In this document: in pieces, positions 35,024 to 64,000 of the stretch
Position numbering within the stretch: position 1 is the first letter of the stretch
How the letters are laid out: the number at the start of each line of letters is the position of its first letter
Origin: a virus
Length of the DNA stretch: 64,000 nt
Reading direction: 5' to 3' (one strand)
IMG/VR virus record: IMGVR_UViG_3300031992_000005
Coordinates: 289,026-353,025 of that record
The notes under the pieces: model-generated
Seen by the model: the letters and a program-made list of their open reading frames with translations, nothing else
What the model was told of the DNA's origin: nothing
Databases searched by the model: none
Position numbers and translations under genes: made by a program

Positions 35024-38000
35024 ATGGCAGAGGATACAAAATTACAAGGAACGAACATTGCCTCAAGAATTGTACCATTCGATTCTCAGGATACCTTTCC
35101 TACCCACGAAGCCTTCTATGGTAGAGGTGGTTATAGAACAGTAGAGGACATTGCAAGCCGAGATGCCATTCCAGAACAACGACTGGAAGAGGGTATGCTT
35201 GTGTACTGTAAAAATGACCCTACTGGCGTTCATACTTATAGATATATGGGTATGAAAGAAGGAACTAATACACGTATTTGGAAAGAATTGAAGCTAGAGG
35301 GAACTGGAGTGCCTATCTATACTAATGCCAACGTCGAGGAGATGAGAGAAGCTGGTGTTAACGTAGATGAAATGGATTACATAACTATTCCAGACGACGA
35401 TGATATTGAGGGTGAGGTAACAAATAAAACTTATGAAACCACACAAAATGGTACTTATGTTGACATTCTATTCAAGGCACTTAGAGCATTACAATCCGAG
35501 GTTGCAAAACTTAAAAACTCGTTCCTTTATGGTATTGAGTCTTATAGCGGAACTGATACAGCAATGGCGGCTATAAGTGAAGAACTTGAAGAAGCCATAG
35601 CAGAAGAACCTCTTTGGGCAGTAGAAGAAGATGGACTTAGCAGCGTGTATGATTTGTTTGAAGCAGCCCCAGAAGCAATTCCAGCTGAATTTGAAGCAAG
35701 AGAGTCTAGTACTGTAGTTGCAACAGAAGATCATACCGGCGGACGATACTACGTTACAATCGACAGCCCTATAAATATTCCAGTCACATGGAATGCGATC
35801 GAAAGAAGTGAGATAGGTAAAATAACCGATAGTAAACTATTTCTCTATCTAACTACTACTGGAGAGAATAATGCGGGGCTAAAATACGTTGTACATATTC
35901 AAGAGGACAGATTAGATGGAACCTCTAGAGAAATAGACTTCGACCTAAGACCATTAATAACTAGTGGTAGTATTACATCTAGTAGTAAGGTATACAATAC
36001 TTTAATTGTTATCAGTAGAAAACAAAAAGTAGCTACTTCTGCCAAAACAGATGAGGAGGGAAATATTTTACCACCTACTACCGAATATTATGGAAGTAAT
36101 TTCATTTGGATAAGTGTATCAGACCCAGTTACAAATTCAACCATAAAGGAGGGATATTGGAAAGATAATACCATTTACGATGATCTTACCCAAGTCGATG
36201 AAGATACAGTATTTTACGATGGCATCCTTTCCTTAAGATCCGTTGATTTTTATAGTACTGTAATCTCTAAATTTCACCTCTACTCCAAGTATCAAGATTT
36301 CACTAAAGGCGTAATACCTAGTAAACCATCAGATGATACTTGGAAATTTAAAGCTGCCCATATTACTATTAGGTCAGTTGATACTTTTGAAACATTAAAA
36401 GAGCTCAAAGATAAATTATTAAATAATGAATTAATATTAGTAGAGAGCTCATATACATTATATATAAAAATAGATAATAAACTTGTTGCTATCGGCAGTC
36501 AATCTTCTCCAGGTGGAGGAGGGTCTAGCGAAGACGGAGGTAGTAGCGAAGATGAAGATACTGGTATGACAAAAACAGAAATTATTCAATGGCTAAGTGA
36601 AAACGGAATAGTCGTTACAGAAAATGGAGGAGATCTTGTTCTTAATGATGTTGCGGACATAACATTTAAGCATGAGGGTACTGGGAAAACCTTCAAATTT
36701 ACCGTTAATGAAAACGGTGAACTTGAAAGTCAGGAAATCCCCGATAAAACAATAAGCGAAGATTTAAAAGATTATACTCTCAAGGGAGACATGAATCTTC
36801 GAGGTTTTATTGCACAATATAGACTAAGAAGTAATGTCAATCAGACAGGTAATGCTAAACTAAAGAGTGATAGATTAAAAATTGGTTCATTCTATGCACC
36901 TCTTAGTGGAGATGTTGTTCATGGATGTACTCACTCATTTATTGAGTTAGAAAATACTTCGGATATAGATATTCCATTGAAAGGAATTTATCTACATGTA
37001 ACTAAACCCGCGATTAATTCCTCAGGTGACGTAGTCCAAAACATATATAGTCTAGAATTAACAGGTATTATTCCATCTGGAGGAACTTATTTAATAAGAG
37101 GCGCAAGACATGCAGAAGATGATGATGCTAATGCTTTTATAAAAGTAAAAACTTACGATCAAGAGTGGTATGTAGACAGCCCTACTGATAGTGATAAGAA
37201 AGAATTACTTTCTCTAGAGATATTAGAAGATATTAATTACGGAGCTTCAGGAAATCCATATGGTCACGGTATTTGTCTAACTTATGGAAACTCTGGTTTT
37301 ACTGGAGGAGATGGTGATAAAGTAGGACCTAGAACACAATTAGTTCGCGGAACTATAGCAAACGAAAAGTTTGACAGTGTTACAATCATTGAATCCGGTG
37401 CATTGAAAAACAAAGAGGACTACCCTTATTGCTATCATAAAAACTTCATAGATGGTATATGTTACTATTTTGCAGTAAAATCAGGTAACTCTCCATATTG
37501 GGCAACTAATGCTATCGGTAAAAATGACGACAAGAGGACAATGTCTAATGTTATGTATAGAAATATGTTCGAACTTGATCCAGCTAATCAAGCCTATCAA
37601 GCATTGAATTCAAAAGATAGTTCAAGAAGAAGATGGGATAAGAACGGAACCGATGTTCAATTACTGGACTTATCTAAAGAATATATTTCTTTCCCAAAAA
37701 CAGAAGACATCTACCCTTTATCTAAGTTTACTCCAAAAGCTTCTTGGGAACATCGCAATGTATGTACAGATAAATCTAAGCTTGATCCTAACAAACCAAA
37801 TATGGTAACTTGCTCCTTTGGTATTAATATCTATACCACTAGATGCTTTAACTGGATCTCCTTAGGATATTTTGATGAATACATTTGGATAAAGAAAACG
37901 AAGGTTGGAAATAATTCTGTTAATGAGTCATGGAAAAGATTTGAATCTTACAAGGAAATAAGTGAGGAAACAGCTAACGCCAGCACTTATCCACGTAGAA

Positions 38001-39975: not shown

Positions 39976-42900
39976 ATGAAAAGACCTAATAAAAATAGTG
40001 CCACAAATGGTAATATCGTTTTCGACGACGATATTACCATGACTGGTACGAATAAAGCGTTTGGGAAAGATCTCCATAGCGCGATGGAGAACCTTTGGTC
40101 AAGAACAGCTAAATTAGAAAATTACCTAAAATGGATCTATAAATACGGCGGCGTAGGTGGAACCGGCGGTGGAGGAGAGACTGCTACATCATATACAGTC
40201 TATGCAGAACTTAATCATAGGAAAGTTGTAGAAGATCCTACTGCATTTATCAACCTAGGTTCATCAGGTACTTTTCCACTTTTAATAAAAATTTCAAAAC
40301 CAGGTGGAGCATCTTATAAAGTAAACTGTACTTTTACAGATAATACTGGATCTATTATAAACACTATTAATGAAACATTAAACCTGGATAATAGTTATAC
40401 GTTAGAAAGAGTTGTAAATATTTCTAAAAATGGTGTACTAAATATAAAAGTTACTGATAGTATCTATAATGAAACTACACCACTCTCCACTAGATATATT
40501 ACTGACCCATACAGATTTACGGGAGATTTAATAAATAATAGTGGTCGTGCATACTCAAATGAAATTTTTACGTCAGATATATTATCCAATGGACTATATC
40601 TAAGACTAAATTACCAGATATCAGTAGCGACTGAAGTATCCTATAAATTAAAAGTAACAACTCCTAAGTTAACTTTTAATAGCGAAGGCTTCACTGCGAT
40701 GGAAGACTTAATAGTATCCAATACAGAGGAGGGTGATTATATAATTGATATTATACAGTTTCTGAGAAAATTTGATTACGGCCTTACCGAGTCTAACTCA
40801 GGTAATTATAGTATTTCTGTCGAACTTCAAACAAAGATAGTTGGAGATCTAGAAACAAATTCTTATACTCCACTAAAGACGCCAATCTCTTTTACTATCG
40901 TTCCAAAAACACTATACCTACTAGTACAGTCTACTTCAGGTACACTATATCAAGTAGAACAAGAACCTGACTCAGTATCTACTGACGATCTATTCTCACC
41001 TGGTAGTATAACTTTTAAAGTTAAACCTTATTTTGAAAACGTTATAGGAAAAAGCTGTACTATCGACTATAAATTAGGAGATGAATTCGAATGGCAAACT
41101 ATTTCAACTAACCTAAGAGATACCCAACAAATAACTATATATTCTACCAGACCTGGAGAGAATAGTATATCATTTGTTCTGAAATACGATAATAAAAAAT
41201 ATCCTACCCAAGAGCAATCCAATGTTGGTGAAGGTACCTACTATTTTTATATAAAAAATTCTACCTTTGACGGAGGCTGGTGGCATCAATTTGAGAAAAA
41301 TACAGATAGACCTTTCTACGATGACCTAAACCATTACTTCAAAGTAACAGAGTGGTCACCAGAATTTAACCCGTTTAATGCTACGTTCGGTAGAAATCCA
41401 ATAAAACAAACAGTAAATAAATCTCCTGTAACTTTAACGAATTTAACCTGTCCTACTGGATCTGACGGTTTTAATACGATAGTTAATATTGGTATTGAGT
41501 ATAATACTATAAATGAAGATGGTGCACCAATACTAAAAATAACTGCATATGACGATACTGAATTAACACTTTATCAAAACAGAATTACCCTTGGGGCAAA
41601 TTCCATTGAAGACGATAGATTATTCATTCCAAAAACAGACTACAGCTCTTTTACTGGATTAAATAATACAGAGGACTATCACTTAATTTCTATTGTAAGT
41701 AGGCAAGTAAAGAAGTTAGGAAATACTGATAATCGTGGTAGAGAAGTAATTATTTACATAGATGGAGTCATTGAGGCTTGTTTTAAAACATTCCTTTATA
41801 GTCCAGGAACCCCATCAAATAACTTAACCGTAAAGGATATAAGTCTATATAGCGTCAACGCAAATTTCAACTTATTTGATATAGCATACTTCAGTCCAAT
41901 CGAGTCTAAGGTAAGTACGGAATATTATATTCCAGAAGATGTTACAATTTATCAATATTACTTGAAATATAAGGAAACACTCTTAAGCAAAACACTTACT
42001 GAAGAGGAAATTAACTTGCTGACTTACTACGACAATATTGATTTTAATCCAGAAAACGGAGACATTTTCTGTTCTGAGGATGCTATGAATAATATAGCGA
42101 GAAACCTCAATGTCCCTGTAATGGCTATTCTAGTAGATGATAATAAAAACGGTAATTATAAAGATTTATTAGGTGGCTATTATCTAGAGTCGAGTACAGA
42201 AGAACTTGAAACAAAAGCTACTTTAAAGTGGAGTGGATTAAAGGGAAAAACTTCGTTAACTGATATAAGCTTTCCAAATAGAACCATAAGTAACACAGGT
42301 AGTTATATAGACTGGACAAGTAATATCCATTTTTATGTAAAAATACAGGGTTCATCTACAAAGGGATATCATATTAAGAATTACACGCTTACCTTAAAAG
42401 ATGATGAAAACCTATATATTCCGTTGTTTTCACCAAACTTTAAAAATAACGACACAACTACATTTCTCCCTGAACACTCATTTACTCTAAAAGCCGACGT
42501 AGTAGATTCCAGTCACTCTAATAATACTTCTATTGGAAATTTTGTTAATGACATCACTACTAAATTCAAAACAAGCCCTACTTCAGTGGATGATGCCTTC
42601 TCTGGATACATAAAAAACTGTTTGACAGGTTTTCCTTTTCTAATTTTCATGAAATTCATCGACCCAAACAAGTCGCCTGATGCTCAAGATGAAAATTACT
42701 ACTATCATGGAGTATATAATTTTAACTTAGGTAGAGAATCCGAGTATAACCTGGGCTATAAAGATTACAATGTCTTCTGTGATAGTAACGGAAAAAGTAT
42801 ACTAGAAGATGCACCAGATTCTGGTGGATTTTCATTTCACATGGTCACTAAGTCCAGTAGTGTTGTAAAAAATGGAGTAATTACTGCAGAAATTCAAGGA

Positions 42901-45900
42901 AACAGCTCATTTCTAGACTTTTCACAATTTGATGAATCATTATTGTTCCAGAATGACAGTGTCTCTGACGAAAACGTAACTACCATGTTCGGTAAAATTA
43001 CAGATGAAAATCCGGACGTATCCTATATCAGAGGAGAAAACCTACAAAATCAAGATGCAAGAAATATCTTACAAAGATTTGTAGAAAAAGTAACCTATGC
43101 GGGTGGTTATGTCTTCACTCAGCTAAAGAAAACCTTTAGTGACGATGGGAGTGCAGGAGTCTTATATGGTTACGGATCTAAGCCCCCACAAGGTTATAAA
43201 GCAGTTGGTAAGATAAAAGTTTGGAATGAAGATTTAGGTGAAATAGAAGAAAAAACCCTTCCATTAAACCAAGTCCCTAACTATCGACACCAATTTATTA
43301 GAACAGTCAGTGGAATTACGCCAAAAGCTGGTTTAACCAGACCAGGTACACTAAATGACCTCATGGATTTGGTTAGAAAAGACGAAAATGATCCTGATGC
43401 TGGAATTCCTTTACTAGACTTTGACAGCGTAAGTGAATATTATACTATCTGTATGGCATTTGGTTTGATAGACTCTGTCCAAAAGAATCTTACATTAAAA
43501 ACATGGACCGCAGATAAGGAGAGCGGACTTGGTACTTTTTATGTAGCATTCTACGACATGGATACTTGCTTAGGAATTGATAATGCTGGAAAGAAAGTGA
43601 ACTACACTGCATTCTCTGATTATTGGACAAAGAATGAATCAGAATCAGATGGAACAAGTACTAGTGAAACAACCTCAAGTGGAACCGTAAGTTATAAAAC
43701 AATTACACCAATTTCAGCTACAGTCTACAGAGACTATTCCCCTTCTGGAGGAGAATACTTCGACGTTGCTAGTTCCTACCTATTTGCGATACCTAAATAC
43801 GCAACTTATATTGCAGGAAAACTTAATCTTAATGCAAGCGATAGTGCGTTTACAGAAAAAATTACAAACTGGCCAAGGCAACTCTGGGAAAAGTGGAGAT
43901 CGAGAAGAAATCCGTCGGATCATAAAATAGGTTGTCTAGAATCCGCTGACTATTTTATAAAGACTTATTTCTCTAATAACTTAGGATCAGTTGGCATTCC
44001 ATTGATTAATGCAAATTACAGAGCAAAATATTTAGTTCAATTGTACTATTCAGGTGATACTACAAATTCTAAAGATGAACTTGGTAAGTTTAATGGAACA
44101 CGCATCGCTAGAGTAAAAGAGTGGTTAAATAATCGTCTTCACCTCCTAGATGCATATTTTAACATAGCAAGAGGTGTAAATAATCCTATAATGTTCTATA
44201 GAGAATGTAATGAGGAAATAGATGGAGAAATGCAGACATTCTATAAGTATACTTCTACGGAAGAAGATACTAGCGCAGACCATTATATGTCAGAACCTAC
44301 TATTTCAGAATACACGTCCGCTACTAACCCAGATGTTTATATAAACTCGGATATTTTTGATAAGCTTTCTCTACAATCAAGTATACCTTTTGTCGTTACT
44401 GTACGTGCTAAAGAAAACTCACCTCTTATTATAACATGTGCAAACTGGACGAAGAGATATCTTATTGGTGGTAATAATTATTATCAAATCCCAGTCCCTG
44501 TATCAGGAACCCAGGCATATAGATTATTAGGTTCAAAAAACTGGACCTATATGGACAGTATTAATGGATTTCACTTAGATGGTACATTTTATATAAACAC
44601 TCAATATATAGATCAACTTGTGGGAGATGATAATTCATCAGAGGCGAAAGAACTGACCTTTGATAATAGCGCTACCGATAATATCCTTATGCCTTCATTG
44701 AAGACAATCAGTTTAACTAGTCCTAAATATAAAGGTACACTTAAATTAGTTGGTACAAACTATACTAACTTAGGTACAATTGATTTAAGTAATTCTAGAA
44801 TAGGTTTAAACATGCAAAACACTACTTGTACGGAACTTAATCTATCTAACGTAAATGGGTCAAATAATCAGTATAATATAGTGGATTGTCTAAATCTTTC
44901 AAAAATTACAATCGTGAGTGCCTATATGTCCTCGCTAATAATAAAGCCTATCCATCCAGATATTATTACTAAAAACTGTGAAACAAGCTTTGGTAAGGTA
45001 ACTAGTAGTAATGTAATTAACCTAGCAAATATTACACCTACTACTTCCAATAATCAAAACACTCCTTTTGGAAAAACAGGCTCTGGATTTTATCTAAAAA
45101 ATACTCATATTCGTGAAATAAATATATCGAATACTAAAATTAATGAAGATAGATCCAGAATAGAGATTGATGGAGACGACACCTTGTATAGCATAACGAT
45201 TGCAGGATTTTCGGTGGTTGTGATAAAGAATTGTCAGAATCTTAATAAGATAAACATATCCGACCCTGAAGCAGGTATTGGTGGCGATAAGCTGAGAAGA
45301 CTATGTATTCAAAATTGTGGTAATGCTGGTACAGACTTAACTATAAATTCTACAGAAAGAGGACATCTGAATTTAACGGATTTCTCTGACCTAAACTTTG
45401 TGAATTTTAGAGAATGTACCAACATAACTAGCATTGAGTTTAGCAATACAGGGGTTTATCTGGACTATGACGCTTTCTATTCCGACAGTAATCTAAGTAC
45501 CATTGATGGAAAAGCCTATATAATAGGTACTACTACCACTGGAACAAGGATCAGACCTACCTTCTATCTTTGTAAAAACTTTAAACTAACGAAAAGTAAT
45601 GGAACTACTTGCTGTGATTTATTTGTCATAGAACAAGCAGTATCTCTTAATAGTACATTCTCTATTGGAAATAGTATTTCAAAAGAAGGCGAAGGAAAAA
45701 TAACACGAACTTTGGCTAAAACATTTATAGAAAGAATCCCAACAAATAACAACATTACCGATATAACCAACATGTTTTGTGGAAATAGAATTGAGTATAA
45801 TGAAACACTATTAGTTAGTGACATAAAATCTACGAAAAACTACATAGACATGTCGGTTTTTAAGAAAGTAACAAACGTAAGTGGGGCTTTTAACTATAAT

Positions 45901-48627
45901 TTGATTAGTGCTTGGCATCCTAAATGGTTCTCATTCGGAGCAGACGTCGATACCATTAATTCCTTTGAAAACTACATGGGTAGAGAGACTTCTACTACAG
46001 TTACCACAGTAATGAATGTTTTCTATGATATTATAGAAAAAATTAGAACAATAGGAGCAAATAACGCCAATACCTCTGGATACCAGTATGTTAGATTAAA
46101 GATAATCTCGGATAATAAAAGCAATCCTACAGTCATAGACCATTTTAAAGCATCTGACTTCTTCTTCCCAAGTAAAGAAGAAACAACACGTTACCCTACT
46201 AAGGTAGAGACCCTACAGCTCATTAGTTTTAGTGGTGATGCTATAGTAGATTTTAGTGGTTTGTTTAGTTACGGACATTGGAATAGTCTAAATACGATCT
46301 ATAGATTTGAATTTGAAACTACCAATACAAGCGGAAATAGTATTAGAGTAAATAATATTATGGGCTTAGACGGTCTATTCAATCTTGGATATCTTGAAGT
46401 AACCTTGCCTCCTTTAGAAGGAGGTATTTTGGACTCTTTTAGAGTAGATTTCGATTCTCCGTTAACAATTACCAGTAGATTGGATGGTTTAACTTATACA
46501 GGACAAACTTTTATTGATCTATATGGTTTTGTAGCTTGGGAAAATTACAGAGGCAAGACTGTAGATTTCTTTAGAAGAGAATATACTTCAAGTGGATACT
46601 CAGATTGGGATGAGGGTAACTTCACAATAAGAAAGTACATATCCTACGATAACTTTAAAAGTCTGTGTGGAATACTATTTAACAGTAATTGTAATTGGAC
46701 CGGATTTAGTAACCTATTTAGAAATTGTACAGTCGTGGCTAGTCCAGATCAGCACGTTGTTATAGAACTTACTGATAAAGATACTAGTGAAGATGATAGT
46801 TTAAGCATGACGGGGGTTAAGTCAATTAATTCAATGTTTGATAATTTCCGTATCATCAGAAAACAACCTGGCTACACTATTACAAAGGAAGATTTAGTTG
46901 ATAGCAATTATTTAGAAAGTGAATACGTAGAATTTAACTATGATAGACTATTAGGTATCTTTCCAAGCCTGACAAGTGCTGCTTTTGCGTTTAGAAACGT
47001 GAAATTTAAAAGAGCATTGCCAATTGATTTTTGGAGGAAAAGGAAAAAAACAACTGAAGACGTTTATATAAAAATAGATGATAGTGGGTTGGATATATAT
47101 CAAAGTCCTGATGAAAACTATTTTAATAATGAAGTTTTAGGAAGATATTTTAAAAAAGCCACGCTATACACGTATAGTTATAACCTAGATTTAGAAAACC
47201 TACAGAGCTGTTTTTATAATACTAAGTGGTTTTATGGAATAGAAAATGGAGAGACTATTCAGGCTAAAAACTTTAATCCAGAACAACTAAGTGATGTTCC
47301 TAAAAACTCAATAGTTATTGATTCTACTGGAGAAGTTATAGATGAGGTTGGCTACTACTATTATAAGTTGGCAAGTGGAAGTAACAATGCCGAAATTGGC
47401 GGCACTATTACAAAAATCTATTATTGGACACTTACAAAGCAAGTAAATGGTCTGGAATCATCTACGGAATTCTCTGACATAGCAGAATTAACTCCAGAAT
47501 CTAATCCTGAGGGTATAGGAGAATATGTAGAAGAGTGTACAATAAACGGATCGGGAGACACTATTAAGAACTACTCAGTATCAAATACTGCTAACGCCAT
47601 TAGTAGATCCTTCATTGCACCAGATATCCTTTATCCAATAAAACCTAACTGTTCACTTAGAAACACGTTCTATTCAGATGGTTCAGATTCAATGGAGGGA
47701 TTGATTCCTAAAAATCTATTAAAAAATTCAACTTCACCTAATATTAACGGATTATTGACTAACCAATCCATTATTCCTAGGAAAATAGGCGTTCTTGAAC
47801 AGACTGACTCGTCAAATCCTCCTAAAGTGGAAAGAGTTAGCTATTATACATTCGTTCCCGAGAACTTTACTCGAATAACATCATTAGAGGGCGCATTTAA
47901 GTTTAAAATACTATTACCTAATAGTAGCACAGAAAGTGGTGATACTATTTCATACAGTAAATACTACATATTGCTGAATACTTCTTTTAAGAATAATAGG
48001 TCAAGTATTACAGCTTTCAGAAATCCTTTCCCAGAATACTGCATAGATGGTGACAATACAACGGTGGGACTCTGGAGAACTAGTACGAATGGATGGTATA
48101 ACACTGCGAATACTTCATATGATAAAGTCCTCTACTACGGTTTAATGTATAACCCAGAATACGATACTAATGGTGTTTTGGTAGGAGGTTCGGAAGGTAT
48201 TGATATTTCAACCAGTGGATTTAGAAATGCAACCTTCGACAATATGTTAACAGCTGGAGGAACGAGTAATAAAGGTAAAGGTACTGTAATAATGAGATAC
48301 TTAACAGGTTATTTATTTAGTTATAATACAACACTAAACCAAATCAAGAGAGCTGCAACCAGTTCTTCTAGTTCGACTCTTAATCCTATATTTGGTACTT
48401 TCTATCATTATCAGTATCAAAATTGTGAAAACTTTACTAACAAAGCACTAATTCTTCCAGGAATAACGGGACAGCCAGGAGCATTTAATAATAGTAACTT
48501 TATAGCATTCAGTTATGACTTTTTAGTACATAAATCACAATTACCTCAAGGAAATAAGAATAATTATGACGAGTTTATAAAAAGTTCTGACCCTAATGCA
48601 AAAGTCGTACTATATCCTCGAGATTAA
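39976..48627 (+). CDS. Giant (2883 aa) fibre-like protein with CotH-kinase-like region and leucine-rich repeats
   Basis: N-terminal coiled coil (MENLWSRTAKLENYLKWIY) then a poly-Gly linker (GGVGGTGGGGE). Domains are listed separately. Confidence 0.6.
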   Translation: MKRPNKNSATNGNIVFDDDITMTGTNKAFGKDLHSAMENLWSRTAKLENYLKWIYKYGGVGGTGGGGETATSYTVYAELNHRKVVEDPTAFINLGSSGTFPLLIKISKPGGASYKVNCTFTDNTGSIINTINETLNLDNSYTLERVVNISKNGVLNIKVTDSIYNETTPLSTRYITDPYRFTGDLINNSGRAYSNEIFTSDILSNGLYLRLNYQISVATEVSYKLKVTTPKLTFNSEGFTAMEDLIVSNTEEGDYIIDIIQFLRKFDYGLTESNSGNYSISVELQTKIVGDLETNSYTPLKTPISFTIVPKTLYLLVQSTSGTLYQVEQEPDSVSTDDLFSPGSITFKVKPYFENVIGKSCTIDYKLGDEFEWQTISTNLRDTQQITIYSTRPGENSISFVLKYDNKKYPTQEQSNVGEGTYYFYIKNSTFDGGWWHQFEKNTDRPFYDDLNHYFKVTEWSPEFNPFNATFGRNPIKQTVNKSPVTLTNLTCPTGSDGFNTIVNIGIEYNTINEDGAPILKITAYDDTELTLYQNRITLGANSIEDDRLFIPKTDYSSFTGLNNTEDYHLISIVSRQVKKLGNTDNRGREVIIYIDGVIEACFKTFLYSPGTPSNNLTVKDISLYSVNANFNLFDIAYFSPIESKVSTEYYIPEDVTIYQYYLKYKETLLSKTLTEEEINLLTYYDNIDFNPENGDIFCSEDAMNNIARNLNVPVMAILVDDNKNGNYKDLLGGYYLESSTEELETKATLKWSGLKGKTSLTDISFPNRTISNTGSYIDWTSNIHFYVKIQGSSTKGYHIKNYTLTLKDDENLYIPLFSPNFKNNDTTTFLPEHSFTLKADVVDSSHSNNTSIGNFVNDITTKFKTSPTSVDDAFSGYIKNCLTGFPFLIFMKFIDPNKSPDAQDENYYYHGVYNFNLGRESEYNLGYKDYNVFCDSNGKSILEDAPDSGGFSFHMVTKSSSVVKNGVITAEIQGNSSFLDFSQFDESLLFQNDSVSDENVTTMFGKITDENPDVSYIRGENLQNQDARNILQRFVEKVTYAGGYVFTQLKKTFSDDGSAGVLYGYGSKPPQGYKAVGKIKVWNEDLGEIEEKTLPLNQVPNYRHQFIRTVSGITPKAGLTRPGTLNDLMDLVRKDENDPDAGIPLLDFDSVSEYYTICMAFGLIDSVQKNLTLKTWTADKESGLGTFYVAFYDMDTCLGIDNAGKKVNYTAFSDYWTKNESESDGTSTSETTSSGTVSYKTITPISATVYRDYSPSGGEYFDVASSYLFAIPKYATYIAGKLNLNASDSAFTEKITNWPRQLWEKWRSRRNPSDHKIGCLESADYFIKTYFSNNLGSVGIPLINANYRAKYLVQLYYSGDTTNSKDELGKFNGTRIARVKEWLNNRLHLLDAYFNIARGVNNPIMFYRECNEEIDGEMQTFYKYTSTEEDTSADHYMSEPTISEYTSATNPDVYINSDIFDKLSLQSSIPFVVTVRAKENSPLIITCANWTKRYLIGGNNYYQIPVPVSGTQAYRLLGSKNWTYMDSINGFHLDGTFYINTQYIDQLVGDDNSSEAKELTFDNSATDNILMPSLKTISLTSPKYKGTLKLVGTNYTNLGTIDLSNSRIGLNMQNTTCTELNLSNVNGSNNQYNIVDCLNLSKITIVSAYMSSLIIKPIHPDIITKNCETSFGKVTSSNVINLANITPTTSNNQNTPFGKTGSGFYLKNTHIREINISNTKINEDRSRIEIDGDDTLYSITIAGFSVVVIKNCQNLNKINISDPEAGIGGDKLRRLCIQNCGNAGTDLTINSTERGHLNLTDFSDLNFVNFRECTNITSIEFSNTGVYLDYDAFYSDSNLSTIDGKAYIIGTTTTGTRIRPTFYLCKNFKLTKSNGTTCCDLFVIEQAVSLNSTFSIGNSISKEGEGKITRTLAKTFIERIPTNNNITDITNMFCGNRIEYNETLLVSDIKSTKNYIDMSVFKKVTNVSGAFNYNLISAWHPKWFSFGADVDTINSFENYMGRETSTTVTTVMNVFYDIIEKIRTIGANNANTSGYQYVRLKIISDNKSNPTVIDHFKASDFFFPSKEETTRYPTKVETLQLISFSGDAIVDFSGLFSYGHWNSLNTIYRFEFETTNTSGNSIRVNNIMGLDGLFNLGYLEVTLPPLEGGILDSFRVDFDSPLTITSRLDGLTYTGQTFIDLYGFVAWENYRGKTVDFFRREYTSSGYSDWDEGNFTIRKYISYDNFKSLCGILFNSNCNWTGFSNLFRNCTVVASPDQHVVIELTDKDTSEDDSLSMTGVKSINSMFDNFRIIRKQPGYTITKEDLVDSNYLESEYVEFNYDRLLGIFPSLTSAAFAFRNVKFKRALPIDFWRKRKKTTEDVYIKIDDSGLDIYQSPDENYFNNEVLGRYFKKATLYTYSYNLDLENLQSCFYNTKWFYGIENGETIQAKNFNPEQLSDVPKNSIVIDSTGEVIDEVGYYYYKLASGSNNAEIGGTITKIYYWTLTKQVNGLESSTEFSDIAELTPESNPEGIGEYVEECTINGSGDTIKNYSVSNTANAISRSFIAPDILYPIKPNCSLRNTFYSDGSDSMEGLIPKNLLKNSTSPNINGLLTNQSIIPRKIGVLEQTDSSNPPKVERVSYYTFVPENFTRITSLEGAFKFKILLPNSSTESGDTISYSKYYILLNTSFKNNRSSITAFRNPFPEYCIDGDNTTVGLWRTSTNGWYNTANTSYDKVLYYGLMYNPEYDTNGVLVGGSEGIDISTSGFRNATFDNMLTAGGTSNKGKGTVIMRYLTGYLFSYNTTLNQIKRAATSSSSSTLNPIFGTFYHYQYQNCENFTNKALILPGITGQPGAFNNSNFIAFSYDFLVHKSQLPQGNKNNYDEFIKSSDPNAKVVLYPRD
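42108..44160 (+). other. CotH-like (atypical kinase fold) region (approximate bounds)
   Basis: Ordered matches to CotH landmarks as I recall them: YVKIQGSSTKGYHIKNYTLTLKDDE (R-G-N-S-S ... K-K-S-Y-k-l), FTLKADVVDSSHSNNTSIGNFV, FPFLIFMKF...YYHGVYNFNLGRE (v-N-G-x-Y-x-G-l-Y), GTFYVAFYDMDTCLG (y-x-W-D-x-D-x-x-f-G). Confidence 0.5.
44698..45535 (+). other. Leucine-rich-repeat region (BspA-like, approximate bounds)
   Basis: Successive ~22-25-aa units ending in L/I-x-L/I-x-x-N/C. Examples: LKTISLTSPKY, LGTIDLSNSRI, CTELNLSNVNG, LSKITIVSAYM, IREINISNTKI, LNKINISDPEA, LRRLCIQNCGN, HLNLTDFSDLNFVNFRECTNITSIEFSN. Confidence 0.55.
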
Positions 48628-56865: not shown

Positions 56866-57106
56866 AGGATGTGTATGTTGGGGTAGGTATGTAGATGATA
56901 AATCCCTCGAAGAATTATCAGAAGAAGAGAAAAATAATTTACTTCAAGTCTTAAAAGATCAATTAACTTTAAGCGACTTAAATGAAGTATTTGACTTAAT
57001 CTTAGATAATCATTATACAGATTACGAATCCGACGACAAACCATGTGAATGCTGCGGAGATTACGTATGCACATGGAAACTTGAAATAAAAAACCTAGGG
57101 AATTAA
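56846..57106 (+). CDS. Small acidic Cys-containing protein
   Basis: 86 aa. Has N-terminal GCVCWG and C-terminal KPCECCGDYVC, a possible metal-binding knuckle. Overlaps the phosphatase gene end by 20 nt. Confidence 0.4.
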   Translation: MLLEKTEGCVCWGRYVDDKSLEELSEEEKNNLLQVLKDQLTLSDLNEVFDLILDNHYTDYESDDKPCECCGDYVCTWKLEIKNLGN

Positions 57107-57124
57107 TCCCTAGGTAATTTTTTT
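57094..57124. terminator. Bidirectional terminator between convergent genes
   Basis: CCTAGGGA (57094-57101) pairs with TCCCTAGG (57107-57114), with a 5-nt loop. A-run upstream (ATAAAAAA) and T-run downstream (TAATTTTTTT). Sits at the stops of 56846..57106 (+) and 57103..57786 (-). Confidence 0.6.
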
Positions 57125-57786
57125 AATCTTCCTTTAACATAAATAATCATTCCGTCATTTTCGGCTAAACTATCTCTCTTTTCAATAAATTTTGTAGGTA
57201 AATTAGAAATAGTTCCCAAGAACTTCGGACAATAGCACTGAAGAAATCTTATAAGTGGTGGAGTATACTCATTCACTTCCCTACCCACATCATGAATATA
57301 CATAGACAATACACAACCATTATATCTCGACATAGGGAATTGAAAATCTATATAAGGTAAATGCTCCTTACCACCAGTAACTTCACTTTTGTAATAAATC
57401 CTATCAGTACAACAACTAGTTATAGTATTTTCCGCAATATTAATAACAATTGGTTTCTCTATCGTACTATGGGGCATGAAGAGCAATAATTCAAATTTAA
57501 GCTTATGAATAGAAACATAAAATTCTGAACTCTTATCATAGATTATAGTAGCGCCTAATTTAATTATTCTCATCAAGATATCATCAGTTGAAACTGCAAT
57601 TCTATCTTCCGTAAGGAGAAACCAATCCATTGATTCTAGGAATTTCTCTAATCCTAATATATCATTGTCAGTTAATTTACGGCTAACTACATATGTCTTT
57701 TCTATTTTAGCCAAGTTTACCCTACTTAACATATTCTTACACATATGTAGAGAATATGTAACACTAACCTTAAATGACGAACTCAT
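57103..57786 (-). CDS. Paralog-array gene 8 (family 1), unknown function
   Basis: 227 aa. N-terminal module AKIEKTYVVSRK...MDWFLLTEDRIAVSTDDI aligns with the ORFs at 57770, 58378 and 61257. Confidence 0.6.
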   Translation of the reverse strand: MSSSFKVSVTYSLHMCKNMLSRVNLAKIEKTYVVSRKLTDNDILGLEKFLESMDWFLLTEDRIAVSTDDILMRIIKLGATIIYDKSSEFYVSIHKLKFELLLFMPHSTIEKPIVINIAENTITSCCTDRIYYKSEVTGGKEHLPYIDFQFPMSRYNGCVLSMYIHDVGREVNEYTPPLIRFLQCYCPKFLGTISNLPTKFIEKRDSLAENDGMIIYVKGRLKKLPRD

Positions 57787-58381
57787 TGCAACCTCCTCTA
57801 AAATATATTCTAAACTGTTCTGGAATTATAGGAGAATGTGCTAGGATTACATTATAACACTTACTCTTCAAGAAATTAGGACATACCTTATATAGCATAC
57901 TAAGTATACCTAAACAGGTAAAACTATACTTTTCCCTTATTTGATTATAATCAGAGTAACCATCAACAAAATAATACTCTGCTTTTACACCACTATCAAT
58001 TCCAGTATGATGTAAGAACCAATAATCACCAAAGCCGTCATCCTTAAAAAATACTCTGGGAAATTGTTCCTTATATCCTTCAGTATCTAAATACCAGATA
58101 TCTGAAAGTATATCATCTAAGAGACTAACTTCTGGAGTAACATAATATGTTTTTGTAGAAGTCAGGAATATAAAATTCCCTGGCATCCAGTCAAGCCGAT
58201 TAGCCTGACATAACCAATCATCCACATTTATTGCCACTTTATCATCCTTGTAGATAAACCACTTGATATCTTTAGATGTTAAGTGCTCCGTTAACTTAAA
58301 TATATCTTGGAACTCAGTATTATAAAATGCAGTAGTTACAAAATATACTTCCTGAATATCTGCCAAAAGTAATTCTATCAT
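57770..58381 (-). CDS. Paralog-array gene 7 (family 1), unknown function
   Basis: 203 aa. ADIQEVYFVTT...IKWFIYKDDKVAINVDDW. Confidence 0.6.
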   Translation of the reverse strand: MIELLLADIQEVYFVTTAFYNTEFQDIFKLTEHLTSKDIKWFIYKDDKVAINVDDWLCQANRLDWMPGNFIFLTSTKTYYVTPEVSLLDDILSDIWYLDTEGYKEQFPRVFFKDDGFGDYWFLHHTGIDSGVKAEYYFVDGYSDYNQIREKYSFTCLGILSMLYKVCPNFLKSKCYNVILAHSPIIPEQFRIYFRGGCNEFVI

Positions 58382-59019
58382 AGTTCTATTTCTTCTCCAT
58401 CAAATATCGCTTCTACATCCTTTGTGAAGATTTCTTGACTTAATCCAAACAAAGAGGCCGTCAACCTTGATGCTATATAAGCATAATCATCTGGCAATTC
58501 ATCTGAATTTAAGTCCTGGTGCCTACATATAACTTGTTTAGTATACCCATCACCTACTTCCATAAAAGATCGTATCTTAAAATGTTCATCATTGAACAAA
58601 GAAACATTTCTTGATGGCACAGATACATAGGTCTTTTCCATCTTAGAAAAATCTGACATAACATGGATTTCTTCGACACTGCTTTTAGGATCCTCTTTAT
58701 GAATTAAATCATAAAGATTTTTCCAAATGTATTCACCCTGATAATATTTTCCACTAATCCCAATAACTAATTGAATAGGTCCACAAATATCCCAAATATA
58801 TCTGGACTTTTCAGAAAGTGAACTGATTAATTTATAGTTTCTTAACCGAGTAATATCACCTGCTGTAATAGCAACTCTATCACTCTTACTCAAGAACCAC
58901 CTAGCACCAACAAGATCAAGTGCATCACACCTGTAAGTTAATGCACCGTAATCTCTATACCTTTGAAGTAAGAAATAAGTTTCTATCTCTTCTTTTGCTC
59001 TAAAGTTTATCATTATCAT
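58378..59019 (-). CDS. Paralog-array gene 6 (family 1), unknown function
   Basis: 213 aa. EEIETYFLLQR...ARWFLSKSDRVAITAGDI. ATGA overlap with the next gene. Confidence 0.6.
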   Translation of the reverse strand: MIMINFRAKEEIETYFLLQRYRDYGALTYRCDALDLVGARWFLSKSDRVAITAGDITRLRNYKLISSLSEKSRYIWDICGPIQLVIGISGKYYQGEYIWKNLYDLIHKEDPKSSVEEIHVMSDFSKMEKTYVSVPSRNVSLFNDEHFKIRSFMEVGDGYTKQVICRHQDLNSDELPDDYAYIASRLTASLFGLSQEIFTKDVEAIFDGEEIEL

Positions 59020-59536
59020 GATGTAATGGGTTTACTAAATCTAATAATTCAAAGAAATTAAAAATATTTAAAGGTAATGAACTGGCAGGAATCGTGATTA
59101 GAGGATACGATGATGTATAATCAGCTCTCACAGCAGTATCCGATATCCTATTCTCTAGGTATACTCGATACTCATATAATAACGAGATTTGACAACCAAT
59201 ATAATCCTGTTTCGCAAAAAAGTTATTTATATCAAGATTAGTATGAACTAACTTTTCCTCTCCATTAGTACTAATTAGGATAAGGTGTCGTATATATACA
59301 CTTTTAATTAGTAAACTTTGAATTATATCTGGGATTATTGCCTTCAACTGTATATAGTGAATCGCAGAAATCATGATAACATCCGGATCATATTCAATTC
59401 CACCTGAATAAGGAATACCTAATTTCTCCAATTCCATGGCGAAATTAAACTGATGTTCATCCTTATCTTTGCCATGAAATCTCATTTCAATAAACGAATT
59501 TCTTCTATGTTTATCTAAAATAATTTCTTCTTCCAT
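59000..59536 (-). CDS. Paralog-array gene 5 (family 2), unknown function
   Basis: 178 aa. DKHRRNSFIEMRFHGKDKDEHQFNFAMELEKLGIPYSGGIEYDPDVIMISAIHYIQL. Confidence 0.65.
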   Translation of the reverse strand: MEEEIILDKHRRNSFIEMRFHGKDKDEHQFNFAMELEKLGIPYSGGIEYDPDVIMISAIHYIQLKAIIPDIIQSLLIKSVYIRHLILISTNGEEKLVHTNLDINNFFAKQDYIGCQISLLYEYRVYLENRISDTAVRADYTSSYPLITIPASSLPLNIFNFFELLDLVNPLHHDNDKL

Positions 59537-60132
59537 AGTCTATACCCTTCTCGTCTTTTCATGTACGATTTATAAAACTCAGTGTCTAGTATACCTAATC
59601 TATACATACTTAAGAAAGCATAGACATCCATATTTGTCTCTACACTATTAAAGATCGTGTCTGGAGTTATGGCAGCCTTAAGTTCCTGACCAACCTCTCG
59701 ATATATAACAGTTGCCTTGTTATTACTAATATCTACCCAATAAGAAGTTACTACATTTAGATCTACTATTATAAACTTACCTGTTGCACGATATGCACTA
59801 ATGAAAAAATCCCAATCTACAACTTCGCTTTCATCATCCTTCAAGTAAAAATGTTCAACTTTTACATCCAAAGGAATTTTCTTATACTCTGGATATATAC
59901 TACATAACTGTATATAATTAACCATAGATATAACTATAGCATCTGGATTATATACAATTCCGCCTGAATAAGAAATTCCCAATTTCTCTAAGTCCTCTAC
60001 CAGACCTAATTGCATGACATCTTTACTTTTTCCCGTAAATATAAATCTAATATAGTAAGGCCTTCTAAATTTATCTATAAGGATACTTCCTATAGATTCA
60101 GGCATTAATAAGTATTTTTCTGCTCTATCCAT
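59515..60132 (-). CDS. Paralog-array gene 4 (family 2), unknown function
   Basis: 205 aa. DKFRRPYYIRFIFTGKSKDVMQLGLVEDLEKLGISYSGGIVYNPDAIVISMVNYIQL. Confidence 0.65.
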   Translation of the reverse strand: MDRAEKYLLMPESIGSILIDKFRRPYYIRFIFTGKSKDVMQLGLVEDLEKLGISYSGGIVYNPDAIVISMVNYIQLCSIYPEYKKIPLDVKVEHFYLKDDESEVVDWDFFISAYRATGKFIIVDLNVVTSYWVDISNNKATVIYREVGQELKAAITPDTIFNSVETNMDVYAFLSMYRLGILDTEFYKSYMKRREGYRLWKKKLF

Positions 60133-60704
60133 TCTTCACCTAAGATATCAAGGTTTAATAGATCTCGATAAACTTTCTCAAATGTTACTCTCATTGAGAA
60201 TATACGTAAATTGTTGTGAACTTTAATTATCTCAGACTTACGAAAATCATCCTCGTAATACTTAATAATATATCTTCCTGCGCATGCTCCCCAAAGATAA
60301 ACCCTAAACGTTACTCTAACAGTTTTATTATCCTTAGTTCCAAGTTTAATTGATTGACTAATTTCAATAAAACATTCATCTGCAAAATAATTTCCCAGAC
60401 TACATGAAAGTCTAAAAGGTATCTCAACATTGTTCACTAGGTCTATCTTACAGTAACTAATATCTACTGTTAAAGCAGGAGAGCTTAAGATCATTAATTT
60501 ATATTTAGGTAACAGTTCTCTAAGTTGAATATAATTCACCGTAGATAACATAATAGTGTCTGGATCTTCATCAATTCCATTTGAGTACCCAATTCCTAAT
60601 TTCTCTAAGTCACCTACAAATGAAAGTTGAGCGGGATCTTTACACTCACCACTAAACTTTAGCTTAACATAAGAATTTCTCCTACAACTATCTAATTGTA
60701 CCAT
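60105..60704 (-). CDS. Paralog-array gene 3 (family 2), unknown function
   Basis: 199 aa. DSCRRNSYVKLKFSGECKDPAQLSFVGDLEKLGIGYSNGIDEDPDTIMLSTVNYIQL. Confidence 0.65.
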   Translation of the reverse strand: MVQLDSCRRNSYVKLKFSGECKDPAQLSFVGDLEKLGIGYSNGIDEDPDTIMLSTVNYIQLRELLPKYKLMILSSPALTVDISYCKIDLVNNVEIPFRLSCSLGNYFADECFIEISQSIKLGTKDNKTVRVTFRVYLWGACAGRYIIKYYEDDFRKSEIIKVHNNLRIFSMRVTFEKVYRDLLNLDILGEEWIEQKNTY

Positions 60705-61273
60705 ACATATCTTTCATGTATTATTTCTGAAAATTTATCGCATAATACGTCAAATCTCAGAAGATCACTTAAAATAGAAAAAGGCAACTCCTCAATATGT
60801 TCTGGTAAAATCTGATCAACATATTTTACACCTGTATCACCACCTTTTCTCAGAATATGCTTAGATTTACCCTTACTTAAGTCAATCCAATATGAGTCTA
60901 TCTCTCCTTCATCACAAATAATATAATTCTGCAATGCTTTGTAACGTCTTAATTTACTTTCCAACTTAAAAGGAACCTCAACGTTATTGATATAATCGAT
61001 AGAACAAAACCCTAATATTGAAAAATCACCCCACAACTTCGTACGATAGCATTGAACTAGCTCTCTTATCTGAAGATAATGAACCGTAGATAACATAATA
61101 GTATTCGGATCGTAAACAATGCCCCCTGAATAGGGTATACTATACTTTTCCAGGACTCCAGCAAAGTATAGTTGATTCTCCTCCTTCTTAAATTTCAACT
61201 TAATATAAGAATTTCTCTTAAACTGATCTATTAACACGTAATTATTATTCCCAACATTAATTGCAGCAGTCAT
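60692..61273 (-). CDS. Paralog-array gene 2 (family 2), unknown function
   Basis: 193 aa. DQFKRNSYIKLKFKKEENQLYFAGVLEKYSIPYSGGIVYDPNTIMLSTVHYLQI. Confidence 0.65.
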   Translation of the reverse strand: MTAAINVGNNNYVLIDQFKRNSYIKLKFKKEENQLYFAGVLEKYSIPYSGGIVYDPNTIMLSTVHYLQIRELVQCYRTKLWGDFSILGFCSIDYINNVEVPFKLESKLRRYKALQNYIICDEGEIDSYWIDLSKGKSKHILRKGGDTGVKYVDQILPEHIEELPFSILSDLLRFDVLCDKFSEIIHERYVWYN

Positions 61274-61895
61274 TGTAAACTATCTCGTAATTAAACTTAA
61301 TGGGTATATCTCTTACACGTCCATTTAAATAATTAGACCCAAGTATATCTAGGTGAACCTTTGCCTGCTCGAACCCAAGCTTGTTATTTTCATTAGCATT
61401 AAATTCAGCCAACTTTCGTGTACTTCCTCCTTCATACGAAAAGAAAATATCGTCTGTCAAAGTTATAATAAAATTTTCTTTGATATATTTATAATTAATT
61501 ATATCTCGAATACTATAATATTCAATTGATCTTATAGATTCATCAGGTAACGATAAATTACGAGTTAGATCTAAAGATAGCTTACCTTTTTGTTGATTTG
61601 CTATAACACGTAATAGTCCCTCCTCCGCAGAAGGATAACTTAGGTAACCCTTACCTCTAAAATCTATCAATAACTCCCTATTACACAGGGGTAATGGTAA
61701 ATTTCCCCAAAGATAAGGATCACTTATGTATTTATGTGTAGGTATTAATATATACTTTTCATCCCTCGATAAACTCCAGGGGAACTGATAAATATCAAAC
61801 TCTTCTGTAATTGCTATTAACCGAGGATAATTATTTTTAGTTTCAATTGCAAAAAATGACTCTAAAATTTCTTCTCGTTTTAATTCTACTACCAT
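61257..61895 (-). CDS. Paralog-array gene 1 (family 1), unknown function
   Basis: 212 aa. EEILESFFAIET...FPWSLSRDEKYILIPTHKY. First gene of the minus-strand block. Confidence 0.6.
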   Translation of the reverse strand: MVVELKREEILESFFAIETKNNYPRLIAITEEFDIYQFPWSLSRDEKYILIPTHKYISDPYLWGNLPLPLCNRELLIDFRGKGYLSYPSAEEGLLRVIANQQKGKLSLDLTRNLSLPDESIRSIEYYSIRDIINYKYIKENFIITLTDDIFFSYEGGSTRKLAEFNANENNKLGFEQAKVHLDILGSNYLNGRVRDIPIKFNYEIVYNDCCN

Positions 61896-61927
61896 AAATA
61901 TTATAAATAATTAACATAAATAAGGGA

Positions 61928-62962
61928 ATGAAACCCTTACTACTGTACTATAAATTTCAAGCTATTATGTTAAAATCTACAGAACCAAAGTATTCCTATG
62001 GCGATATTTTTATTAAGCCAGCAGTACTCAGTGACGTCAAGCATAGAATTGATTGTCACGCTTACACTAGTGAAGGATCTCTCCCTATTTTTACAGCACC
62101 TATGGATACTGTAGTTGGGAAGAACTCCTTTAACATTTGGAAAGAAAATAAGATTATTCCCATTTATCCAAGAACTATTTCTTATTCTGAAAGAATTCGC
62201 TTTATGGAAAATGGTGACTGGACTAGTTTTGGGTTAGATGAATTTGTACAACTAACCACGAGCTATAATAAAGAACTGAAAGGAAAGATTCTAATTGAAA
62301 TGGCTAATGGTCACCTGGAAGATCTTTATAAAATTGCAGGTGAAGCAAAAGAAAAGTTTCCTAACCTAACTTTAATGGTAGGAAATATAGGAAATGCTGA
62401 AACTTACAACATAGCCTGTGATTGTGAGATTGATTATATCAGACTTGGTATTGGCGGTGGATCTGGATGTATTACTGCGACACAAACTGGTATACATTAT
62501 CCAATGGCAAGCTTAATACATGAAGCAGCAAGTAGAAAAATGATGAGGTTACAAGGTTTTCGTACAAAAATCATAGCCGACGGAGGAATTAGGAGCTATA
62601 AAGATATCTGCGTAGCTCTTGCCTTAGGTGCGGATTATGTAATGATTGGCGGATTATTATGCGGATTAAAAGAATCTGAAGCACCAATCATTGAAAACGA
62701 AGATGGATCCCTCTCAAAGAAATTCTATGGCATGGCATCTAGAGAAGGACAGACTGCTATGTATGGATCAAAAATAAAAACAGTTGAAGGAAAATCTAAA
62801 CTTGTACCTATAACAGGAACTATTCCTGGATGGGTTGAGAATGCTACTGATTACATTAGATCTATGATGTCTTATATTGGGGCAAAAAACTTAGAGGAAA
62901 TATATGAAAAGGCAGAATGTATAATAGGATCACAGGATACGCTCAACCGAATTAATAAGTAA
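61928..62962 (+). CDS. guaC: GMP reductase-like enzyme (IMPDH/GMPR family)
   Basis: Collinear with E. coli GuaC as I recall it. GIGGGSGCITATQTG matches GIGPGSVCTTR (catalytic Cys loop). IADGGI matches VSDGGC. GADYVMIGGLLCGLKES matches GADFVMLGGMLAGHEES. FYGMAS matches FYGMSS. No CBS insert. The ATG at 61967 (MLKSTEPKYSYGDIFIKP) may be the true start. Confidence 0.8.
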   Translation: MKPLLLYYKFQAIMLKSTEPKYSYGDIFIKPAVLSDVKHRIDCHAYTSEGSLPIFTAPMDTVVGKNSFNIWKENKIIPIYPRTISYSERIRFMENGDWTSFGLDEFVQLTTSYNKELKGKILIEMANGHLEDLYKIAGEAKEKFPNLTLMVGNIGNAETYNIACDCEIDYIRLGIGGGSGCITATQTGIHYPMASLIHEAASRKMMRLQGFRTKIIADGGIRSYKDICVALALGADYVMIGGLLCGLKESEAPIIENEDGSLSKKFYGMASREGQTAMYGSKIKTVEGKSKLVPITGTIPGWVENATDYIRSMMSYIGAKNLEEIYEKAECIIGSQDTLNRINK

Positions 62963-63566: not shown

Positions 63567-63720
63567 TTTATGCAAAAAATCGCGGCTGTCGGTGTGGCAT
63601 GAATAATGGCCCCTTCGGGGATAAAACTGAAGATATTATATATAATAATATTAAGATAAATGCATTCCATAGGGATCTCTCCTTTCAGTCAAGATCCACT
63701 CCAGCTAAAGCTGGGAACTT

Positions 63721-64000
63721 AAAATTATTTTAATCAATATTTTAACCTAAATTTGGAAATTTATATATATAACCATTAACAGTAGTAAAAATTGCATAAA
63801 ATTATTTTAATCAATATTTTAACCTAAATTTGGAAATTTATATATATAACCATTAACAGTAGTAAAAATTGCATAAAATTATTTTAATCAATATTTTAAC
63901 CTAAATTTGGAAATTTATATATATAACCATTAACAGTAGTAAAAATTGCATAAAATTATTTTAATCAATATTTTAACCTAAATTTGGAAATTTATATATA
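63721..64000. repeat. Perfect 77-bp tandem direct repeats, at least 3.6 copies, truncated by the window end
   Basis: The unit AAAATTATTTTAATCAATATTTTAACCTAAATTTGGAAATTTATATATATAACCATTAACAGTAGTAAAAATTGCAT starts at 63721, 63798, 63875 and 63952. The copies looked identical on direct reading. Confidence 0.9.

Follow-up and report, generated by a model that had tools for sequence, protein, structure and literature searches.

The stretch analysed here, hereafter the window, comprises 64,000 nucleotides (nt) of the IMG/VR virus record IMGVR_UViG_3300031992_000005 (positions 289,026 to 353,025), and the element under study is a block of eight open reading frames (ORFs), g1 to g8, on its minus strand at 57103-61895. 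An ORF scan returned these genes with exactly the coordinates given in a preliminary description of the same DNA, and the array is a real, conserved, co-oriented and tightly coupled eight-gene operon of a large uncultivated rumen phage. Every gene overlaps the next, by 17, 13, 28, 22, 20, 4 and 17 nt at the successive junctions from g1 to g8, as the preliminary description had noted (4-28 nt), and the overlaps are also kept in relatives. The array is likewise the only credible minus-strand block of the window, as first proposed, because all other minus-strand ORFs of at least 100 amino acids (aa) are nested within long plus-strand ORFs and because the GC skew turns negative (about -0.25) at 58-62 kb only.

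The operon begins with g1 (61257-61895, minus strand, 212 aa), whose N-terminal module is marginally like that of the family termed family 1. It continues on the same strand with the four genes of family 2, namely g2 (60692-61273, 193 aa), g3 (60105-60704, 199 aa), g4 (59515-60132, 205 aa) and g5 (59000-59536, 178 aa), and closes with three putative family-1 genes, g6 (58378-59019, 213 aa), g7 (57770-58381, 203 aa) and the last gene g8 (57103-57786, 227 aa), which is nearest to g7. The N-terminal module (N-module) of family 2 covers approximately residues 13-79 of g2 (nt 61037-61237), 2-71 of g3 (nt 60492-60701), 17-86 of g4 (nt 59875-60084) and 5-74 of g5 (nt 59315-59524). All eight proteins are soluble, with no hydrophobic stretch long enough for a membrane helix, which agrees with the earlier remark that transmembrane segments are lacking, and seven of them are mildly acidic, the exception being g8 (pI 8.4).

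At its 3' end, the array shares a bidirectional intrinsic terminator (57084-57124, both strands) with the convergent plus-strand genes, and this previously proposed boundary was confirmed as a 9-bp stem with five GC pairs (57093-57115), which has an A-run at one flank and a T-run at the opposite flank. The stop codon of g8 overlaps that of a convergent 86-aa plus-strand gene by 4 nt (57103-57106), and the hairpin is built from the coding ends of both g8 and this 86-aa ORF. Upstream of g1 lies a short divergent control region (61896-61966) with a hairpin at 61919-61941 and the sequence TATAAT directly upstream of position 61899. The extent of this region depends on the start of the divergent IMPDH/GMP-reductase-like gene (61928-62962; Pfam IMPDH, E 5e-42), whose annotated ATG at 61928 falls in the loop of the hairpin (AAGGG-TTTCATT-CCCTT). 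With that start the gap is 32 nt (61896-61927), shorter than the region first described, whereas a start at Met14 gives a gap of 71 nt (to 61966) and restores the described limits. Since family alignments begin at Met14 and relatives are about 13 aa shorter, translation may start at 61967, which would leave the hairpin intergenic. The closest kin of the IMPDH-like protein outside this lineage are about 50% identical and occur in other phage-like contigs beside nucleotide-metabolism genes.

Two paralog families

On sequence comparison, family 2 is beyond doubt. The four consecutive genes match one another in pairwise blastp (E 1e-17 to 3e-27), their ortholog profiles align by hhalign at 99% probability, and the core motif of the preliminary description fits exactly g2-g5 among all six-frame ORFs of the window, so that the proposed four-gene family stood in full. 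The best-conserved stretch is about 70 residues near the N-terminus, where paralogs are 41-56% identical compared with 21-30% over the remainder, and it holds eight invariant polar residues (D, R, Q, K, Y, S, Y and Q) within about 60 aa, several of which sit in the "YSxGI..DPD" loop. In g3 numbering, invariant positions include D5, R9, Y40, S41 and P48. The strong C-terminal divergence noted earlier is thus real in extent, but the C-terminal halves are not unrelated, for they remain homologous when compared alone (g2-g3, E 3e-8; g2-g4, E 1e-5). Because this homology is still detectable, the members of family 2 are whole-length duplicates under unequal constraint and not swapped modules, and the "constant plus variable module" of the preliminary description is better replaced by whole-gene paralogs whose constraint differs along their length. 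Synonymous sites (synonymous divergence, dS) are saturated between family-2 paralogs, and the duplications are therefore ancient. Since the N-modules are only 69-79% identical in DNA while dS is saturated, their conservation points to selection on the protein and not to gene conversion. Judged from these paralog comparisons, the families of the array arose through old whole-gene tandem duplications.

Family 1 is less firmly supported. Pairwise blastp gave E-values of 6e-6 for g7-g8, 0.004 for g6-g7 and 0.014 for g6-g8; hhalign probabilities within the family were 11-37%, and the g6-g7 alignment reached an hhalign E of 6e-4. We accept on sequence grounds that g6, g7 and g8 share a divergent family-1 N-module, a relationship that is real but weak. 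The position of g1 is less secure, as none of its pairwise comparisons with g6-g8 reached significance (E 0.2-0.6) and the literal family-1 motif given earlier fits only g6, g7 and g8. A further candidate member, p284, is a 284-aa protein encoded outside the window (L002 1869-2723, equal to L027 14884-15738), in a second block on the strand of the array, past the IMPDH-like gene, the gene p166 and a 702-aa gene. Its first ~60 residues align at the same N-terminal positions with g1 (hhalign E 1.3e-3) and g6 (E 2.4e-3), and this match suggests that the family extends beyond the array. Hidden Markov models (HMMs) were built from the N-terminal ~70 residues with one group left out at a time; run against 742 ORFs, they gave the omitted group an E-value of 1e-7 for g6, 3e-5 for g7, 9e-5 for p284, 5e-3 for g1 and 0.06 for g8. 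Through p284 and these models, g1 can tentatively, and marginally, be assigned to family 1, so that of the family proposed earlier (g1 plus g6-g8) the g6-g8 part holds weakly and the g1 part at the margin. A C-terminal "LDILG..aromatic" pattern, common only to g1-g4 among the ORFs of the window, was dropped when an HMM of the segment missed g1.

The preliminary description had also called for a check on whether the two families are remotely related. No sequence relation was found (hhalign E 0.18), and the residues invariant in family 2 are not shared by family 1. The N-modules of both families have the same predicted secondary structure, β-α-β-β-α, which is not evidence of homology.

Conservation, relatives and genomic setting

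The locus was found in public assemblies, apparently from rumen samples, as three diverged lineages separated by a dS of about 0.2-0.6: the window type (L002-L007 and L027), L010, and L008/L009/L017. Every complete copy carries the eight genes in identical order as 1:1 orthologs that are 70-100% identical (71-99% for g1). The ratio of non-synonymous to synonymous divergence (dN/dS), estimated by the Nei-Gojobori method between lineages for whole genes and parts of genes from few sequences, was 0.16-0.48 for the array genes (g1, 0.31-0.35; g4, 0.23-0.24) compared with 0.06-0.13 for the flanking IMPDH-like, p166 and Metallophos genes, and the dN of the array genes (0.04-0.16) was 3-10 times that of the IMPDH-like gene (0.016). 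Constraint is strongest over the first ~65-75 residues and relaxes in a gradient from the N- to the C-terminus; ortholog dN/dS was 0.06-0.40 for the N-terminal parts and 0.16-0.68 for the C-terminal parts (0.55-0.59 for the C-half of g5), and the dN of the β-rich C-terminal part was two to three times that of the conserved N-terminal stretch.

These rates bear on the arms-race diversification that the preliminary description had inferred. The array does evolve fast, and fastest in its C-halves, but dN/dS exceeded 1 nowhere (at most 0.48 for whole genes and 0.68 for C-halves), and non-synonymous changes were not over-represented in the polymorphism of near-identical strains. Among the three lineages we found neither a change in copy number nor recent duplicates, and no C-domain has been swapped between them, inheritance being vertical. 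The predicted diversification in copy number among relatives was accordingly not seen, the same eight 1:1 orthologs being present in all three lineages, and this is half of one of the outcomes that had been named as counting against the proposal. Some irregular copies were set aside. In L022 and L023, g5 and g7 look interrupted, which we discounted as evidence of pseudogenes, and in L020 (1-2537) a g6 ortholog stands beside bacterial-type 2-hydroxyacid dehydrogenase and aldolase genes, which we discounted as a new gene context. All three are scaffolds or short contigs with gaps, homopolymer errors or chimeric joins, L022 having an N-run and poly-A at its breaks, so that the oddities are likely chimeric joins or assembly errors.

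Searches beyond the locus returned the same phage lineage or nothing. Pfam, PHROGs, PADLOC and NCBIfam gave nothing significant for any of the eight proteins, a profile search of PDB sequences with both family alignments was empty, and megablast and tblastn against GenBank phages produced no match, which bears out the earlier view that the families are undescribed. When 5.8 billion proteins were searched by word index with the profiles of the two families, 15 and 14 clusters emerged, consisting of orthologs only, and an exhaustive hmmsearch with the family-2 profile over 1.84 billion representatives retrieved five proteins, all orthologs of the family-2 genes of the array. IMG/VR, the metagenomes of the Joint Genome Institute (JGI) and GTDB genomes yielded contigs of the same phage or nothing; with the IMPDH-like neighbour as a synteny anchor, the next relatives were 50% identical and lay in unrelated phage contexts without the array. 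Across these sequence collections, both families are confined to this phage lineage.

An AlphaFold2 model of g3, built from the family alignment, reached medium confidence (predicted local distance difference test, pLDDT, 73.6; predicted template modelling score, pTM, 0.72) and comprises a β-α-β-α N-domain (residues ~11-72, pLDDT 82-91) followed by an antiparallel sheet of several strands and, at the C-terminus, two helices. Foldseek searches of this model against PDB and BFVD gave no fold match (best E 0.1-0.16); the N-domain resembles ferredoxin-like, ACT or PII domains weakly and non-significantly (template modelling score 0.4-0.6 normalised to the target, E >0.1), and no fibre or receptor-binding protein fold was matched at E below 0.1. 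The corresponding model of g7 was of too low quality for a fold search (pLDDT 41). More specific candidates were also considered. No homology to known anti-defence proteins appeared in Pfam, PHROGs, NCBIfam or the g3 fold search, which are general libraries and not anti-defence-specific; no helix-turn-helix (HTH) family that could indicate an Aca-type regulator was matched among the eight products or their immediate neighbours; a Bro-N or KilA-N domain had no Pfam match at E up to 1; and polymorphic-toxin immunity families (Imm or SUKH) had no match in Pfam or NCBIfam. ModA and ModB of T4 are tandem paralog ADP-ribosyltransferases of about 200 aa, in which the fold carries an R-S-E (or H-Y-E) motif. 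An R...YS...E resemblance to such enzymes was seen by eye only and found no support, there being no Pfam match to an ADP-ribosyltransferase family and no structure of this class among the Foldseek matches.

The boundaries of assembled contigs offer hints on transcription. When contig ends were compared with window positions 61899, 57078 and 56130, one contig of 4810 bp (L007, equal to L016; JGI 3300024345) was found to start at 61899, which directly follows the TATAAT and precedes the g1 ATG by 4 nt, and to reach 15 nt beyond the terminator stem, ending at 57078. A contig from a different JGI sample (L005) starts at the same nucleotide, a third (L006) starts 10 nt downstream of it and stops a few nt short of the Metallophos ATG, and two others (L004 and L010) start at a hairpin downstream of p166. 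Such coincidence of contig ends with the boundaries of transcription units suggests assembled transcripts, and position 61899 is a possible transcription start. That the array is expressed as one nearly leaderless polycistronic mRNA of about 4.8 kb is put forward as a lead only, given that the contig ends come from samples of unconfirmed library type. Promoter consensus matches, whether of the σ70 type or to the Bacteroidota motif TAnnTTTG, did not exceed chance expectation.

The plus strand of the window encodes a tape-measure-like protein of 1864 aa with lysozyme and M23 domains, an amidase, a tail-fibre-like protein, small unknowns and the Metallophos protein, in addition to three giant ORFs (25365-32534, 2389 aa; 35024-39970, 1648 aa; 39976-48627, 2883 aa) that had no PHROG matches; in Pfam, only the 1648-aa protein was matched, weakly and to Metallophos. 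Amid the tail-module genes, at 14835-15824, lies a GIY-YIG-type homing endonuclease-like ORF (PHROG E 4e-20). The array runs opposite to the tail and lysis genes, with the terminator and the Metallophos gene in between and tail-fibre-like genes about 5 kb off, and it adjoins the IMPDH-like gene on its other side. Beyond the window, on the strand of the array, the phage encodes a double-AAA+ ATPase of the ClpB/ClpC type, at least 889 aa long (AAA_lid_9, AAA_2 and ClpB_D2-small) and about 8 kb past the window, and also a STIV_B116-like protein (L027 19299-21035 and 18136-18441, respectively). Both belong to the contig of 185,181 bp (ERZ27257202 k141_1331635) on which the array and the exact IMPDH-like protein stand together, so that the phage is large (at least 185 kb). 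Only 6 of the 39 plus-strand genes have a Shine-Dalgarno motif ahead of them, and the sequence upstream of genes is rich in A, a combination that suggests a Bacteroidota host, probably a rumen Prevotella or another member of that group; no tRNA genes were found in the window. At its far end (63720-64000, running off the end), in the intergenic space between p166 and the 702-aa gene, the window contains a perfect 77-bp tandem repeat of at least 3.6 copies with 100% identity, the unit of which contains TAAATTTG. The same intergenic region lacks the repeat in L002 and holds two copies of a 143-bp unit in L008, so its repeat content varies between strains; the repeat may represent an origin or iteron or have a regulatory role as an array, or it may have arisen as an artefact of assembly.

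Possible roles of the array

That the eight ORFs are real genes follows from their 1:1 orthology in three lineages and a dN/dS of 0.16-0.48, and their reading as one operon is supported by the overlaps at every junction, the single terminator and the ends of L007 and L005. The opposite strand, the terminator, the intervening Metallophos gene and the lack of a match to any virion-protein family or fold incline us to regard the products as non-structural, and the combination of faster evolution than the neighbouring genes with strict lineage restriction gives them the character of accessory genes. Taken together, manipulation of the host during infection, by takeover or counter-defence, is the most likely role, which we hold tentatively and would not call probable. 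Under this proposal, a single, nearly leaderless polycistronic mRNA, distinct from the transcripts of the virion genes, would yield the non-structural accessory proteins together. A function common to all members would come from the conserved N-module, be it docking to a shared partner or ligand, ligand binding or oligomerisation, and the diverged C-terminal surfaces would give each paralog a different target, the paralogs having presumably sub-specialised long ago and not currently turning over. In a narrower variant that we consider improbable, the proteins would act as adaptors with a new fold, the constant N-module docking a shared hub and the eight C-domains each capturing a different host protein for inactivation; the candidate hub is the phage ClpB/ClpC-type AAA+ ATPase, and the targets may be, for example, defence components.

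Several observations weigh against a role in host manipulation. A copy number that does not change, 1:1 orthology and a dN/dS below 1 all speak against an arms race still under way, and neither the library searches nor the fold searches found similarity to any known anti-defence or takeover protein. The transcript reading is based on contig ends from samples whose library type is unconfirmed; with the failure of the family-1 model (g7), an architecture shared by all eight proteins is at best putative; and the invariant polar residues would suit an enzyme equally well.

The strict preservation of gene number and order over three lineages, together with conserved overlaps at all junctions, uniform sizes (178-227 aa) and purifying selection on all genes, would also be expected if the products were eight paralogous subunits of one hetero-oligomeric assembly, held at fixed ratios by translational coupling and serving a non-conflict role such as a replication or assembly scaffold or a chaperone-like complex. 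We regard this as unlikely, as C-half dN/dS values of up to 0.68 are unusual for tightly packed subunits, an extra family-1-like gene (p284) lies in another operon and no oligomerisation signature was found. The invariant polar residues lead to a different reading, in which the proteins are small enzymes or ligand binders whose N-module forms the active or ligand site and whose substrates differ by paralog, perhaps tied to the neighbouring nucleotide-metabolism genes. Eight such residues in ~60 aa, including a conserved Gly-rich loop, the adjoining GMP-reductase/IMPDH-like gene and the weak, non-significant likeness of the N-domain to ferredoxin-like, ACT and PII ligand-binding domains fit this idea, yet no enzyme family or fold was matched, family 1 lacks the invariant residues and the ADP-ribosyltransferase idea found no support in Pfam or Foldseek, so that we give it little credence.

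A place in the virion deserves to be weighed on similar terms, with the products serving either as small receptor-binding or adaptor proteins (N-terminal anchor, variable C-domain) or as packaged ejection proteins whose N-module is an incorporation signal. Receptor-binding proteins and the internal proteins of T4 typically pair a conserved N-terminus with a variable C-terminus (PMC11414711, PMC3012670), tail-fibre-like genes are located about 5 kb off, and large phages such as this one often have paralogous head or ejection proteins (PMC5694885). The array nevertheless occupies the other strand, with a terminator and non-structural genes between it and the tail genes, its products bear no family or fold likeness to fibre, spike or head proteins, its C-domains are inherited vertically without swapping, and the N-module is a predicted α/β domain of about 70 aa instead of a short targeting peptide; a virion role is therefore distinctly unlikely in our estimate. 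The eight genes could finally be dispensable lineage-specific orphans with no specific role, kept by weak selection or hitch-hiking, as strict lineage restriction and relaxed constraint relative to neighbouring genes might suggest. This too seems quite improbable, for all eight genes remain intact and in order, at a dN/dS well below 1, across lineages that are 0.2-0.6 apart in dS, and the paralogs have survived undamaged from duplications that are old enough for dS to have become saturated.

If the proteins do act on the host, as the host-manipulation proposal holds, the array would contribute two new families, one of them with a predicted fold unmatched in PDB or BFVD, and both could be screened for counter-defence or host-takeover activity in phages of rumen Bacteroidota, for which, to our knowledge, there are almost no experimental models.

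Comparison with known systems

The opposite strand, own terminator, short divergent control region and orphan families of the array fit the separate transcription unit of lineage-specific, non-structural genes that characterises host-takeover modules. The host-takeover module of SPO1, a large lytic phage, comprises about 26 small early genes, and its product Gp53 is a ClpCP adaptor-like protein (PMC6873191). The array resembles that module in being a separate transcription unit of small, lineage-specific and, here, putatively non-structural proteins without a known fold in a large phage, and the adaptor logic of passing host proteins on to a Clp ATPase corresponds to the mechanism suggested above. 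SPO1 genes are, however, mostly shorter than 100 aa and do not form two paralog families, and their early timing was shown experimentally, whereas early expression of the array is a prediction. Searches of PHROGs and GenBank phages detected no sequence similarity between the two.

A second point of comparison is provided by the internal proteins IPI, IPII and IPIII of T4 and the polymorphic ip loci, which combine a conserved N-terminal capsid-targeting sequence with a variable remainder, and of which IPI* blocks the GmrSD restriction system (PMC3012670). The likeness lies in a conserved N-terminal part with a divergent body in several paralog-like genes, one T4 case being anti-restriction. The T4 signal, however, is a cleaved peptide of about 10-19 residues encoded by late head genes, whereas the N-module here is a predicted α/β domain of ~70 aa and the operon, unlike the T4 genes, lies outside the structural block. 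The tail spikes TSP1-4 of Ackermannviridae form branched receptor-binding complexes of several spikes (PMC11414711) and share with the array a tandem arrangement, a conserved N-terminal part, which serves docking in the spikes, and a variable C-terminal part, which confers their specificity. These spikes are trimeric β-helix proteins of 500-1000 aa, encoded in the tail module, with horizontal exchange of C-domains, whereas the array proteins are ~200 aa, show no such fold in the g3 model, are encoded on the opposite strand and are inherited vertically.

Arms-race amplification is exemplified by poxvirus K3L and by the multigene families of African swine fever virus. In phages, the amplification of T4 tifA against toxIN represents such a gene-amplification accordion (PMC9391042). 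The array is like accordions in being a tandem set of paralogs in a large DNA virus; accordions, however, are recent and variable in copy number, whereas the array is fixed in copy number and descends from ancient duplications.

Lineage-specific arrays of orphan paralogs are common in large phage genomes. Because the locus lacks the testable defining features of the systems compared here (homology, a short targeting peptide, a fibre fold, an HTH partner or a change in copy number), we file it as a new instance of such arrays. What is new is the protein families, and what is already familiar is the paralog array of large phages; as an ancient, stable and apparently sub-specialised set of paralogs, it would, if its products do act on the host, offer a useful contrast to the rapidly turning-over accordion arrays.

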